A stretch of 32,000 bases of DNA. Source: Candidatus Heimdallarchaeota archaeon. Its GTDB lineage: Archaea; Asgardarchaeota; Heimdallarchaeia; Heimdallarchaeales; Heimdallarchaeaceae. The stretch's first letter is position 1, and every line of letters starts with the position of its first letter. The stretch is from positions 54,597 to 86,596 of the forward strand of contig DAOVER010000009.1 in the NCBI GenBank assembly GCA_030668875.1, written 5' to 3'. A program made the position numbers and the translations under genes. The notes below the pieces were generated by a model. That model saw only the letters and a program-made list of their open reading frames with translations, had not been told where the DNA came from and made no database searches. Of the stretch, positions 7,871 to 24,433 are shown in pieces.

Positions 7871-9205
7871 GTGATAAAGCATCTTCTAATTCTCACAACT
7901 TATGGTCAAATATTCTATAGTCAAGAATTTGAAAAAACAGAACAAACAGTTGATGTTGCTCTGACTGGAGGGTTAATGAGTGCGATTTACTCTATGACTT
8001 CTGAAACCCAAAAAGAAAATATCTCTGAGTTTGAACTAGTAACATCCAGAATCATTTTCCAAGAGGAAGACCAAGATTTACTCTTCGTCCTTACTGTCGA
8101 CAAAAGAATGGATATTAAGGATACAAACGAAATTCTAAAAGCGATCTCAAAAAGATTCTTCGAGAAACATGGAGAGCTAAGAATTGATGGGTTAATCCTA
8201 ACTGATTTCGAGAAAGATGCCACAGAAATAATATACAAGAAGCTTTGGTATCTAAATACACAAGATAGAAAGTTTAGAGTATGGGATTATTTAGCAACAA
8301 TATTTGTCACCCTAGCACTGTGTTGGTATTCTCTTCTCCTTTTTGGTTCTCCACAGATTGTAGGTATGCCTGAATTTGGTATAAAGACCTTTGTCTGGGA
8401 AAGCCTTCTGCAAAGGATAGATGATCCAGGAGGATTTATACTGCAGTTACTGTTTTTAGTGGCAGTCATCGCAGTTCCAGCTGTTGGAATCTACTTGCTG
8501 TTTAAATTCACACATGTTAAAGATATTTTTCGTTTTCCAAGAGATTATCTCTCAAGACCAAGCAGAGCAAGCTATTCAGAACTCCTGCCCAATTATTTCC
8601 TACTTACAATTCTAGTATCGTTCCTAATCTATGTGAGTTTCATGGCTTTTGGAGGAGGATATTTCTCTGAATTGACAGTTTATCCCTTATATGCTGGAGG
8701 GCTGTATTCTGATCTGAATCAACCTTTCGATTTAGGAAATATAGGTGCGAGTATACAAGTGAGTGATATAGGAGATCAAGTATTGATAGGAACAACATCT
8801 TGGTTAACATGGGTATTTGCCTTTCCACTAATTTATTCGCTACTAATAGGGGAAAAGAAATGGCTAAGAATCTATAAAAATTCAGTTTTCATTGCTTCAA
8901 TTACTATTTTCATTCTAATAATATGCTACATATTTGCTGGAGTCAAATATCTTGAAGCGGTTGGATTTCATCCTAAGGATCCTGCAACATTTAGAACGGA
9001 GCAACACTTGCTAAACTTTCAATTACTATCCACTATTCCGCTTAATATTTTCTTCTACGGATTCCTCTTGTTTTTGGGTATAGGCGTGAACAAAGTATCT
9101 CCTTCCAAAACAAGAATTCCTTCTGTAATTGCTTTAGGTATTGGAATTTATTCAACACTAATTATACAGAGGTTAATATTTTTTGCCTTGGTCGCACCTG
9201 CTTAA
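7871..9205 (+). CDS. Longin-like domain fused to a ~7-TM integral membrane domain
   Basis: The N-terminal ~125 aa show longin beta-beta-alpha-beta-beta-beta-alpha order (LLILTTYGQIFYSQEF; LTGGLMSAIYSMTSE; ISEFELVTSRIIF; LLFVLTVD; TNEILKAISKRFFEKH). About seven hydrophobic segments follow from residue ~140 to the C-terminus. Confidence 0.75.
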   Translation: MIKHLLILTTYGQIFYSQEFEKTEQTVDVALTGGLMSAIYSMTSETQKENISEFELVTSRIIFQEEDQDLLFVLTVDKRMDIKDTNEILKAISKRFFEKHGELRIDGLILTDFEKDATEIIYKKLWYLNTQDRKFRVWDYLATIFVTLALCWYSLLLFGSPQIVGMPEFGIKTFVWESLLQRIDDPGGFILQLLFLVAVIAVPAVGIYLLFKFTHVKDIFRFPRDYLSRPSRASYSELLPNYFLLTILVSFLIYVSFMAFGGGYFSELTVYPLYAGGLYSDLNQPFDLGNIGASIQVSDIGDQVLIGTTSWLTWVFAFPLIYSLLIGEKKWLRIYKNSVFIASITIFILIICYIFAGVKYLEAVGFHPKDPATFRTEQHLLNFQLLSTIPLNIFFYGFLLFLGIGVNKVSPSKTRIPSVIALGIGIYSTLIIQRLIFFALVAPA

Positions 9206-20853: not shown

Positions 20854-20937
20854 TAATAGGGAACATTGAGATCAGTGTGAGCTGAGTAAATCATGGACTT
20901 CATAGGTTGTTCGCTATACATCATATCTATCATTCCC
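20854..20937 (-). ncRNA. Box C/D 2'-O-methylation guide sRNA (double guide), predicted targets LSU rRNA U2552 and A2577 (E. coli numbering)
   Basis: Minus strand reads GGGAAUGAUAGAU [C: AUGAUGU] AUAGCGAACAACCU [D': AUGA] AGUCC [C': AUGAUUU] ACUCAGCUCACA [D: CUGA] UCUCAAU GUUCCCUAUUA. Box order and spacing are canonical, and an AGA/UCU stem closes the C/D K-turn. Both guides are complementary to recalled conserved LSU rRNA sequences (AGGUUGUUCGC and GUGAGCUGGGU). The ends are approximate. Confidence 0.85.
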
Positions 20938-21018
20938 AGCTCAAATTATAAATGACTAAAATAAGATTATTGTTTGTAAAGAAAATATGAAAAAAGTTAG
21001 AAAAATTAAGAATCTTAG

Positions 21019-22065
21019 CTAAGATTCCTCTGTTGCTTCTTCAGTTTCAACTTCTTCTTGATCCGCTATTTCAAAATCTCCTTTGGAACTAACCAGCCCT
21101 TGTCTCTGCATTTGAAGGACTTTATCTTTTTGTTGTTTTAGTGCATCTATTGCACTTTTTGGCACAGGTGGAGGGTCATAACGTTTTATCAATGCAGTGA
21201 GAGCTTCTTTCTCCTTCTTCAAATTTAGTCTGTCACATACAGAGTAGAATAGTTCATCATAAAGGAAAAGCTCCTCTAATAGCTGATCATAATCTTTTCT
21301 TAATTTTTCATCCTTCAGATTCTTGATATCATCAGAAACAATCTCTTTGATGTAAATATGAATGATATCGTCATTTTCTGTAATTTCTCCTAGGTAGAAA
21401 ATGAATTTTGATAAATCTGCTTTAGCATCATGGACTGCAATATTGATAAGAAGAGTTCTAAAGTCATCAACAAATATTTTTGCTAAAGCTACCTCATCGA
21501 TTTTTAAATACTTAAGTAAATCTTCTTGCCAATTATCATCTAACTTGGAATAATTAAATAACAGGGCGGGTACCAAATAATCAAACAAAGGTTTTCTTAT
21601 TGCATCAATTTCCTCATCTGATAATTTCTTCAAGTTCTTAAGAAATATCTTGTAGAATTGAGCATTTCCACTAGCTTCAAAGTAACGTATAAGAGGCAGA
21701 ATCATTTGATGTTTTCCTAGTCCTTTGTAAGCGATTTTTGATAGTAGTTTATTACCACCAATAAGTAAACCAATCATTACAGGTATCAATATTAGAAATG
21801 CCCATAATTGGTTACTGTTTTCAGAAGGCACTAATACAAAAATGAGAATGACACTTGTCATTGTTATCACCATAGTTCCGATCTGGATATATTTTCTGAA
21901 TTTAGAAGCATTGGGAGAATTAAAGCAAAGAGCACAAATTTTCTTATCTTCAACTGTTCTAGCTTCCTCTGAATCACATATTGGTAAACCACAGAGAGCG
22001 CATTGACCTGTGGATTTATTGTGAAAATGAAAAGCACAAATCTCTTCGTTTGCAGTTTTGGACAT
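21019..22065 (-). CDS. Membrane protein with N-terminal B-box-like zinc finger, 2 TMs, helical cytoplasmic domain and acidic tail
   Basis: CAFH-x8-CALC-x4-C-x13-CALC, two hydrophobic helices at about residues 60-105, a long amphipathic helical region, and the tail EEVETEEATEES. Confidence 0.7.
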   Translation of the reverse strand: MSKTANEEICAFHFHNKSTGQCALCGLPICDSEEARTVEDKKICALCFNSPNASKFRKYIQIGTMVITMTSVILIFVLVPSENSNQLWAFLILIPVMIGLLIGGNKLLSKIAYKGLGKHQMILPLIRYFEASGNAQFYKIFLKNLKKLSDEEIDAIRKPLFDYLVPALLFNYSKLDDNWQEDLLKYLKIDEVALAKIFVDDFRTLLINIAVHDAKADLSKFIFYLGEITENDDIIHIYIKEIVSDDIKNLKDEKLRKDYDQLLEELFLYDELFYSVCDRLNLKKEKEALTALIKRYDPPPVPKSAIDALKQQKDKVLQMQRQGLVSSKGDFEIADQEEVETEEATEES

Positions 22066-22263: not shown

Positions 22264-22869
22264 GTGAGCAGTGACGATACGGTTCAAATAATTATACGCG
22301 AAGCAAAAGATATTCTTGCAAAACAATCAGCTGAGGATTTCTTGAGTTATGTAGAAGGCAAGACCTCAGAGTTAGAAAAATTAGATCAGATTCTAGAATC
22401 TATTATTCTATGGCACTTTGTTGCAGAAACCATGGAAAATTTCGAAGAAGAAGACTATTTAGCTTACGCTTACAGCAAATTAATCAGCAGATATATGCTA
22501 GTTGATAATCTTAACAAAGCTGAGGAAATTTATGAAGATTCTGAGGATAAAAATCTTTCCAGTTTCCATTTAGACACTGTAAAAACAATTTTTGCTGGAA
22601 GACAACAAACTAAAGGAAATCGAGAAATCATTAAAATCCACCGTATGGATGTTTTTGGGGATCTTGAACTAATCCCAGCTAGTCCAAATATATATTTTGA
22701 GAATGTCTCAATAATCAGAAGGTATATTCATAATAATCTACCAGAAGGAACCTTTTCCATAGTTATCCTAAATCACAAGAATAACACTGAAGAAGAAATA
22801 GAGATTTCGACTGAAATTCTTTCAGAATACGAAGTAATATCAATGAACGAAAAAGTGAGGATGAACTAA
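22264..22869 (+). CDS. Hypothetical acidic protein, helical (TPR-like) N-terminal half
   Basis: 201 aa ORF with GTG start. LAYAYSKLISRYMLVDNLNKAEEIYE resembles a TPR helix pair. There is a 1 nt gap to the next ORF. Confidence 0.7.
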   Translation: MSSDDTVQIIIREAKDILAKQSAEDFLSYVEGKTSELEKLDQILESIILWHFVAETMENFEEEDYLAYAYSKLISRYMLVDNLNKAEEIYEDSEDKNLSSFHLDTVKTIFAGRQQTKGNREIIKIHRMDVFGDLELIPASPNIYFENVSIIRRYIHNNLPEGTFSIVILNHKNNTEEEIEISTEILSEYEVISMNEKVRMN

Positions 22870-22870
22870 G

Positions 22871-24433
22871 ATGCCAGAGAAACAAGCGATTTGGGGATCT
22901 GCCAGATATTTCATCAAAATTGACCCTTACACAAATGTTTTCAGTACTTCAATGAGTGCATTAGTATCATTCTTCGACACTCATGGACTAATTAATGAAA
23001 AGGAATGCAAAAATCTTCAGGAGATTGCTAGAACTGTGCAGGAGTTCTGGTCAACTATTCTAGCTCCTCACGAAACAAGAGTTGCTAGGTGGATAGTTGA
23101 ATATTTATCAGAGATAAATATCATTGGAAACTACGATTTACTCTTGCGTCTTCTTCGTTCTGATGAAGACATGGCAGAGGATTTGGACGATCTTATTAAA
23201 GATACAAAATCAGTTGCTACAGAGGATTTTGAAGAAGCCTTTAACATTCCAGAAGACACAAAAATAATCGGTCACGAGATTACCATTACAAGACTTCCTG
23301 AAGATGATTACTTGAGAAATGAACTTCTACAAAAAATCCTAGAAGACAACAAATATCAGGTTCCATTATCAATAAAAAGTAGAAGTCAATTTAAACTTCC
23401 TAATGGCGAAATTGCAACTGTTGAAAAGGAAAATACTTTAGGAATTGGAGAAACTCAAAGAGATGTTAAGCTGTTCTCTGTTTTGGAAAACGAATATGAT
23501 GAACCAATTACAGAAGTTGAAATTGTAGATGAAATCCCCTATTACTTTGAAATGGAAGATATGGGTATAGATAATTTGGAAATTGAGCCAACTAAAGAGA
23601 AAAAGGAGAAGGTTTTAGAGGTTATCTGGAAAATCCCAGAAATCAAACCAAAAGAAAAAGTTGAAATTAATTACAAACTTGCAAAACGAATAAATCGCAC
23701 AATTCTTGAAATCGTTCAAAATGAAGTTATAGCAGTTTTGAATGTTTTTGAAAATATCGAAGCTAAAGGATTAGAATTCCTCGCTCACACAGAATACATC
23801 AATATTCACAATAGACCTTTACATGAATTGCACATTGTTGATGAAATACCTCCCGAGTTTAATATTATAAGAACAAATCCTGAAGCCTTACCCCCAACAG
23901 GTGTTATAGAAAAAGCAAAGTTAAAAGGAATTAACATCCAATGGAAACAAAAGAATGTTAACGTAAATCAAACAATTGAAAAAAGCTATACATTAGATTA
24001 CTTCCCATATCTTTTCCGAGGTAAGAAAGTCATAGTAAATGAGGAAGGAAGTACACTATTCAAGATTGCCAAATTTATAATGCCTTCTGAAAAAGAGATG
24101 GGTTACACCGTGCTATATATCATAAAGAACGTGAAATCTGAAACTAGTGACTTAATTTCTTTGATGGATAAACTTCCAGTAAATCACACAATTGTTGGAA
24201 GAAAACCTGAAGAATCTCAAGTTATGGAGCAAATTGACGATGAAGGAGAGAAAATTATCACATGGATTGTAGAAGCTCCTACAGCTAGAAAAAGCACAAC
24301 TCTGAAGGTTTTTGTATCGGGTGATACACCGCCGGTATTTGATATATTCAAGGTTTTCATAGGAGATAAAGAGGAAAAGGAAGTGTTAGAGAAAGAGACT
24401 ACTATTAGAAGAGAGATGGTTAAATCTCCCTAA
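22871..24433 (+). CDS. Hypothetical cytoplasmic protein with three Ig-like (DUF11/TRAP-beta-like) repeats
   Basis: Three N...(V/I)xD(E/K)(I/L)P...(I)xW...Y repeats: VEIVDEIP/VIWKIPEIKPKEKVEINY, LHIVDEIP/IQWKQKNVNVNQTIEKSY and ISLMDKLP/ITWIVE. No signal peptide or TM is visible. Confidence 0.7.
   Translation: MPEKQAIWGSARYFIKIDPYTNVFSTSMSALVSFFDTHGLINEKECKNLQEIARTVQEFWSTILAPHETRVARWIVEYLSEINIIGNYDLLLRLLRSDEDMAEDLDDLIKDTKSVATEDFEEAFNIPEDTKIIGHEITITRLPEDDYLRNELLQKILEDNKYQVPLSIKSRSQFKLPNGEIATVEKENTLGIGETQRDVKLFSVLENEYDEPITEVEIVDEIPYYFEMEDMGIDNLEIEPTKEKKEKVLEVIWKIPEIKPKEKVEINYKLAKRINRTILEIVQNEVIAVLNVFENIEAKGLEFLAHTEYINIHNRPLHELHIVDEIPPEFNIIRTNPEALPPTGVIEKAKLKGINIQWKQKNVNVNQTIEKSYTLDYFPYLFRGKKVIVNEEGSTLFKIAKFIMPSEKEMGYTVLYIIKNVKSETSDLISLMDKLPVNHTIVGRKPEESQVMEQIDDEGEKIITWIVEAPTARKSTTLKVFVSGDTPPVFDIFKVFIGDKEEKEVLEKETTIRREMVKSP

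Follow-up and report, generated by a model that had tools for sequence, protein, structure and literature searches.

We consider it likely that a 79-nt stretch on the minus strand of the window (the whole 32,000-nt piece of Candidatus Heimdallarchaeota DNA that was analysed) is the gene of an archaeal box C/D sRNA, probably with its own promoter, which guides methylation of the 23S rRNA at the equivalent of E. coli A2577 and, in this lineage, also at that of U2552. A preliminary description of this DNA had proposed a double-guide box C/D sRNA, and the proposal is borne out by the four boxes (C, D', C' and D), two guides for rRNA, the genes for the core proteins and conservation in the family. 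The genome assembly comprises 99 contigs (3.23 Mb, 33.8% G+C), and the sequencing runs listed as containing DNA of the window were all marine-sediment DNA metagenomes, with no RNA run among them. A search of the window against Rfam returned no family at the gathering threshold. Sub-threshold snoRNA-like matches (E-values up to 10: SNORD81, TtnuCD21, snR71 and sR52) were not counted as evidence.

Read along the minus strand, the gene (20937-20859) runs through GGGAAU, a short internal loop, AGA, box C, the D' guide, box D', a loop, box C', the D guide, box D, UCU and GUUCCC (Table 1). A terminal stem closes its ends and brings the C and D boxes together, as the formation of a kink-turn needs. 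The box-to-box core occupies 20924-20872 and is the element that the preliminary description had delimited; the coordinates and motifs given there for the boxes and guides were exact, but the gene is larger, at 79 nt with the terminal stem. The spacer between C' and D is 12 nt long and constant in the family, about 12 nt being the typical spacer of archaeal sRNPs, and that between C and D' is 14 nt here and 13-16 nt across the family. The sRNA is flanked by a 348-aa ORF (22065-21019) and by a GT2 glycosyltransferase ORF (20792-19143), the first of two GT2 glycosyltransferase ORFs, and all of these lie on the minus strand. Neither Pfam nor NCBIfam gave a match for the 348-aa protein encoded upstream of the sRNA. 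Further along the window, at 22264-24433 (plus), two ORFs of 201 aa and 520 aa are transcribed divergently, and neither has a Pfam match.

Table 1 Features of the box C/D sRNA gene and its upstream region, in window coordinates.
Feature	Sequence	Position	Strand	Remark
Candidate TATA-like promoter element	UUAUUUUA	20957..20964	minus	ends ~20 nt upstream of the first base of the stem; inferred from position
Terminal stem, 5' strand	GGGAAU	20937-20932	minus	pairs with 20864-20859
Internal pairing strand	AGA	20928-20926	minus	pairs with UCU 20871-20869
Box C	AUGAUGU	20924-20918	minus	6/7 matches to RUGAUGA
D' guide	AUAGCGAACAACCU	20917-20904	minus	14-nt spacer
Box D'	AUGA	20903-20900	minus	variant of CUGA
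D'-C' loop	AGUCC	20899-20895	minus	5 nt
Box C'	AUGAUUU	20894-20888	minus	degenerate; UGA core kept
D guide	ACUCAGCUCACA	20887-20876	minus	12-nt spacer
Box D	CUGA	20875-20872	minus	kept in 27/28 primary family homologues
Terminal stem, 3' strand	GUUCCC	20864-20859	minus	pairs with 20937-20932

Both guides were compared with the 23S rRNA of the genome itself. A whole-genome search with RF02540 and RF01959 returned no rRNA in this genome; a 23S fragment was located by pattern search and confirmed by cmscan. The start of contig C9 carries the 3' 1452 nt of the host 23S rRNA (RF02540, 809 bits, model positions 1963-2987), in which the target region reads GGGGUUGUUCGCCCAUUAAAAGGGAACGUGAGCUGGGUUUAG. 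The host 16S rRNA was not assembled, and a 16S from the same genus (G023) and a 23S from the family (G006) served as proxies in the off-target scans. Positions 2-11 of the D' guide form ten Watson-Crick pairs with the host sequence GGGUUGUUCGC and position 1 forms a G-U pair, while positions 2-12 of the D guide form ten Watson-Crick pairs and one G-U pair with GUGAGCUGGGU. The fifth position upstream of the box (N+5) falls on the U2552 equivalent for the D' guide (position 1066 of the fragment, L071; the second U of GGUU) and on the A2577 equivalent for the D guide (position 1091 of L071; the A of GUGAGC). Numbering was taken from an ungapped alignment to an E. coli 23S gene and from standard numbering. 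In that alignment, the D' site is the first A-loop U (C-U-G-U-U-C) and the D site, 25 nt away, is the A of GCGAGCUGGG. The aligned E. coli copy has 2906 nt and the sites read 2554 and 2579 in it, a two-base offset from 2552 and 2577 that is presumably due to the length of this copy relative to the 2904-nt reference.

The preliminary description had predicted these pairings from consensus rRNA sequence. On the host 23S rRNA, both guides do pair over 11 positions, the D guide with a single G-U, and both N+5 positions fall on the predicted nucleotides, 25 nt apart. The A-loop/H92 target given there for the D' guide, AGGUUGUUCGC, was slightly wrong for this host. The host has GGGUUGUUCGC instead and guide position 1 therefore forms a G-U rather than an A-U pair, which leaves the prediction unaffected. 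Each guide finds its single best rRNA match at its target, by a margin of 1.5-2 pairs; the next-best site has 8 pairs for the D' guide and, for the D guide, 9 pairs with a mismatch beside the target nucleotide. No tRNA targets were found for the guides, the best runs being 5-6 bp. The 23S fragment itself (G000:C9:1-1452) has 1452 nt for 1025 model positions, or ~430 extra nt in this third of the molecule, which is compatible with the large rRNA expansion segments reported for Asgard archaea.

UGAUGA-like and UGA motifs are frequent in a genome of 34% G+C, and the fold energy of the sRNA is no better than that of shuffled sequences (z = -0.23). Both points would suit A/U-rich motifs that arose by chance in AT-rich intergenic DNA, without an RNA gene. 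We regard such a fold energy as unremarkable, and uninformative, for RNAs of the C/D class. Only four strict C/D'/C'/D skeletons were counted in the 3.2-Mb genome (both strands, 6.4 Mb), and in two of them each guide has an rRNA match. Among random genomic 10-mers, 3.4% find 10 contiguous pairs (at most one G-U) in the rRNA set, and the joint matches of the two guides, 25 nt apart, are far below chance. Thus, given the number of skeletons, the rate per 10-mer and the spacing of the targets, chance is not a serious explanation. Moreover, the element is kept across five genera while the flanking proteins fall to 40% identity, and its stem covaries, as described below. Conservation and covariation effectively refute a chance origin, to which we give hardly any credence.

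The second strict skeleton with both guides on rRNA lies outside the window (G000 contig C36, plus strand, ~8467-8514). Eleven positions of its D' guide, AGUUGCAACGAU, pair with the decoding-centre sequence GUCGUUGCAAC of 16S helix 44, as read from the same-genus 16S, and this skeleton is probably a second dual-guide sRNA. Also outside the window, on the minus strand of G000 contig C34 (near offset 67204 of the reverse complement), is AUGAUGA-UACAACGGUCU-AUGA, a candidate C box, guide and D' box. This guide has 11 paired positions with the host 23S sequence AGACCGUUGUG and its N+5 is the C2591 equivalent, which lies 14 nt downstream of the A2577 equivalent.

Next, we consider the conservation of the sRNA. 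A BLAST search in relatives gave six clear homologues among many spurious 14-17-nt matches, and a covariance model was therefore needed. The model (R1), built from seven sequences, finds the sRNA in 28 of the 29 other genomes of the family and in all five genera, with E-values from 1e-19 to 3e-8 except for the divergent G005 (7e-3). In the other three families of the order, R1 gave no convincing match. All 28 homologues lie between orthologues of the same two genes and on the same strand, and the flanking proteins have diverged to ~40% (348-aa protein) and 44-60% (GT2) identity. The 348-aa gene (21019-22065, minus, in the window) stays beside the sRNA in all five genera, with 37-44% identity outside close relatives.

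In a 30-row alignment, the UGA cores of all four boxes are essentially invariant. The AUGA core of box C is invariant in the 7-sequence alignment and kept in 28/28 family homologues. Box D' is AUGA or CUGA in relatives, with an invariant UGA, the UGA of box C' is invariant across the family, and the CUGA of box D is kept in 27/28 primary family homologues. The D guide has the core AGCUCAC in 25 of the 28 family homologues, and three close relatives have GGCUCAC, with a G-U at position 8. Free variation is seen across the family at position 1 of both guides and in the D'-C' loop. Fixed guide cores and boxes beside a free position 1 and a free loop are the pattern expected of a working guide. 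Conservation in relatives had been named in the preliminary description as a check on the sRNA; the boxes and the D guide are indeed kept, but the D' guide is kept only in its six box-proximal bases.

In relatives, the terminal stem reads GAGAAUAnnnn/nnnnUAUUCUC (11 bp), and this genome has GGG/CCC where most relatives have GAG/CUC. Across 28 distinct sequences, 85.8% of the cells of the 11-bp stem are paired, compared with no more than 58.8% for a slid partner strand. Compensatory double changes occur in 5 of the 11 pairs (22 cells), a result that none of 500 shuffles reached. The tail GUUCCC (window 20854-20871) is also complementary to 23S GGGAAC, directly 5' of the target of the D guide. 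For this tail we favor a role in the stem over one in rRNA pairing, as the same bases covary with the stem and the GAGAAU/AUUCUC of the relatives would not match the rRNA; in the alignment, its role in the stem is the supported one. Two genomes carry a tandem second copy of the sRNA ~80 nt downstream of the first (L061:1666-1748 in G009; L062:1339-1421, minus, in G013). The D' guide of this copy, CACGAACA(A/G), fits the A-loop in another register (N+5 on the U2555 equivalent, 7 bp). With a degenerate D box, the second copy is probably a duplicate in decay.

All lineages of the family have a TATA-like A/T-rich motif ~20-30 nt upstream of the stem, within surrounding sequence that differs, and a second TATA-like element lies between the sRNA and the GT2 start codon. 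The positions of these elements suggest that the sRNA is an independent transcription unit. They also argue against a cis-acting role, in which an L7Ae-binding kink-turn would form as part of the GT2 mRNA leader or of the 348-aa gene's trailer and its complementarity to rRNA would be incidental. Such an element would fit the strictly syntenic, same-strand position next to these two genes in 28/28 genomes, and a terminator signal is not evident directly after the stem. However, the RNA has two independent 11-bp complementarities to adjacent, central rRNA sites, both with the correct N+5, and the family is constrained in the guide core with guide position 1 left free. In addition, archaeal sRNA genes that abut coding genes are common (PMC6009581). 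We regard a cis-acting element as very improbable.

The genome encodes the proteins with which a C/D sRNA would assemble. Fibrillarin (PF01269, 7e-92) and Nop5 (PF01798, 8e-63) are adjacent on contig C36, and L7Ae (PF01248, 1e-26) is on contig C58. The fibrillarin shares 89-96% identity with proteins of Candidatus Heimdallarchaeota MAGs and 74% with its AB_125 counterpart. An FtsJ-family protein of 203 aa aligns over the full length of the RrmJ/RlmE model TIGR00438 (1.8e-59) with 200 bits, short of the 300-bit equivalog cut-off, and orthologues of this RlmE-like protein are found in 30/30 family genomes. All three core proteins and an RlmE homologue had been listed in the preliminary description as genes to look for, and the genome has them all, the last as an RlmE-like protein that scores below the equivalog cut-off. 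The RlmE-like protein may make Um2552 alone, in which case the guide to U2552 would be redundant.

Comparison of the D' guides within the family bears on this point. The sole constant part of the D' guide in relatives is ACAACC (positions 2-7), and the divergent G005 has UUCAACC. The form GCGAACAACC, which makes 10-11 pairs with the A-loop, is found in this genome and in G021, G022 and G026 only. G018 has GAACAACC, while G014 and six further genomes have AACAACC. In the remaining members, three of the four other genera among them, the guide is GAAUUACAACC, which makes 6-7 bp with the A-loop (6 bp with the standard A-loop); the fourth other genus is the single genome G005. Since A-loop pairing of the D' guide is limited to 6-8 bp in most relatives, guidance of U2552 is not a conserved function of the family.

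In trees of the flanking genes (single-gene, midpoint root), the long-guide genomes form one crown group with the GAAUUACAACC forms outside it. The AACAACC forms surround this crown group in the GT2 tree, and the tree of the 348-aa gene lacks that nesting; the two trees also disagree on whether G014 falls inside or beside the four-genome crown group. With a midpoint root and discordant single-gene trees, the direction of change rests on the outgroup genera. Taking the other genera as outgroups, the full A-loop complementarity of the D' guide is read as derived. Two pattern searches across 399 genomes of the phylum located the dual arrangement in the same register in this genus only, plus one dubious match.

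The shorter GAAUUACAACC form was also searched for targets of its own. Its exact complement was found only in the sRNA gene itself and, at control frequency, in a few places without an Rfam family at the gathering threshold, and its best rRNA duplexes have seven Watson-Crick pairs and one G-U, with mismatches. The anticodon loop of tRNA-Thr(UGU) (7 bp, N+5 on U34) was considered as a target and rejected as being at chance level by our own estimate. On the rRNA side, the A-loop reads GGUUGUACGCC, with an A at the U2555 equivalent, in 6 of the 19 family genomes that have this 23S stretch assembled (G002, G003, G016, G023, G029 and G030; e.g. G002:C23:23787-23821). U2555 is a near-universally conserved U, and the six genomes fall into two separate clades in the flanking-gene trees. 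All six carry a U at D' guide position 8 that is able to pair with this A, and seven genomes with U2555 also have U8. The association between guide position 8 and rRNA 2555 is not independent of phylogeny and is suggestive only.

From these data, it could be argued that, although the C/D sRNA is real, only one of its guides is catalytic. The D guide would direct Am2577, the D' guide would tether or chaperone the A-loop or be redundant, and Um2552 would be made by the RlmE-like protein. The presence of the RlmE-like gene throughout the family and the short A-loop pairing of most D' guides agree with this, as do the non-canonical and variable C-D' spacer and the degenerate D' and C' boxes. Lui et al. 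also describe conserved dual guides in which the weaker arm, with <8 bp, may be a folding aid only (PMC6009581). Against this, the D' guide of this genome and three close relatives has ten Watson-Crick pairs plus a G-U with the correct N+5, and it matches that of Methanopyrus sR17, which Dennis et al. assigned to the U2552 site. Furthermore, a guide RNA and a protein enzyme share the U2552 equivalent in yeast (PMC5699541) and redundancy is thus no argument against function. We think it unlikely that the D guide is the only catalytic one here, and favor an sRNA in which, in this lineage, both guides direct methylation.

We compared the Heimdall sRNA to characterized archaeal and yeast systems. 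Methylation of U2552 guided by an sRNA was predicted in five of seven archaea by Dennis et al. 2015 (PMC4644070). In supplementary file 1 of that study, three guides that directly precede a CUGA are relevant here: the D' guide AGCGAACAACCG of Methanopyrus kandleri sR17, the D guide ACCCAGCUCACG of M. kandleri sR56 and the D guide ACUCAGCUCACU of Sulfolobus acidocaldarius sR127. The two Methanopyrus guides are in the same register as those of the Heimdall RNA and have the same predicted N+5 (the U2552 and A2577 equivalents), but they sit on two sRNAs, each with a different second guide, whereas the Heimdall RNA carries both. The Methanopyrus RNAs are also G+C-rich, come from a thermophile and lack the long terminal stem of the Heimdall RNA. 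The D guide of Sulfolobus sR127 likewise lies in the register of the Heimdall D guide and differs from it only at position 1, which need not pair; its D' spacer is A-rich and, unlike that of the Heimdall RNA, has no complementarity to the A-loop. In Pyrobaculum (110 sRNA families), 72% of the rRNA-targeting sRNAs aim both guides at sites <100 nt apart, and it is common for guide arms to degenerate into weak or orphan ones (Lui et al. 2018, PMC6009581). Thus, the Heimdall RNA shares with the archaeal double guides the C/D'/C'/D layout, nearby dual targets and divergence of guides within a family. It differs in its mesophilic, AT-rich Asgard host, its 13-16-nt C-D' spacer and degenerate internal boxes, and most members of its family have an 11-bp covarying terminal stem.

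Yeast methylates both nucleotides through separate factors, as the preliminary description had stated. In the 25S rRNA, snR52 directs Um2921, with Spb1 acting redundantly at this site, and snR71 directs Am2946 (PMC5699541). U2921 and A2946 are the equivalents of U2552 and A2577, with the same 25-nt spacing (ungapped alignment, standard numbering), and the yeast A-loop U also shows redundancy between RNA-guided and protein-only modification. Yeast employs separate snoRNAs, and the second guide of snR52 targets 18S A420, whereas a single RNA carries both guides in Heimdall. A comparison with Rfam for orthology to snR52 or snR71 gave no match at gathering level; the best, to snR71, reached 16.3 bits against a gathering threshold of 60 (E = 7). 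We attribute this match to the shared guide, and the likeness of the Heimdall and yeast RNAs lies in their target nucleotides.

The arrangement of both guides on one RNA had been offered in the preliminary description as possibly ancestral and related to that of eukaryotes. Our comparison does not support this idea, since the long A-loop guide is found in four close genomes only and pattern searches of 399 genomes located the arrangement itself in this genus only, apart from one dubious match. Each of the two guides also exists in non-Asgard archaea, nearby dual targets are the archaeal norm, and the RlmE-like enzyme is present in 30/30 family genomes. With these guides also present in Crenarchaeota and Methanopyrus and a young dual arrangement in Heimdall, the picture of snoRNA origins is unchanged.

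By analogy with the characterized archaeal C/D RNPs, we propose that L7Ae binds both the kink-turn (C/D) and the kink-loop (C'/D') of the sRNA and that two fibrillarin copies are recruited through a Nop5 dimer. Each guide would then pair with the nascent 23S rRNA, and fibrillarin would methylate the ribose opposite the fifth guide base upstream of D or D'. In this scheme, the D guide would direct methylation of the A2577 equivalent and, in this lineage, the D' guide that of the U2552 equivalent in the A-loop, 25 nt upstream, probably alongside the RlmE-like enzyme or as a backup to it. Simultaneous binding of both sites may aid the folding of helices 92-93. On the sequence evidence, predicted guidance of A2577 by the D guide is the conserved, primary function of the family-wide sRNA, while predicted guidance of U2552 by the D' guide is read as a recent refinement of this lineage, one that probably overlaps with the RlmE-like enzyme.

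The RNA is, as judged from its sequence and its relatives, a genuine but ordinary double-guide box C/D sRNA that had gone unannotated, and both of its target methylations are predicted. The papers covered by our literature searches include no catalogue of Asgard box C/D sRNAs. As a well-supported case, this RNA enlarges the list of rRNA-modification guides in the archaea closest to eukaryotes. It provides a concrete prediction for the 23S rRNA of Heimdall, with the A2577 equivalent as Am and the U2552 equivalent as Um. The comparison across the family, in which one guide arm turns over and the other is fixed while an RlmE-like enzyme co-exists, bears on how RNA-guided and protein-only systems share sites. 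We tentatively offer one possible, if doubtful, history, in which an old single-purpose sRNA, with its D guide aimed at A2577, extended its second guide stepwise within the Heimdallarchaeaceae, from 6 to 7-8 to 10-11 bp of A-loop complementarity, with the RlmE-like enzyme kept throughout. If true, this family would give a snapshot of RNA-guided machinery acquiring a site that bacteria modify by protein alone, and the stepwise extension would end in a redundancy of guide and enzyme like that at yeast U2921 (snR52/Spb1).
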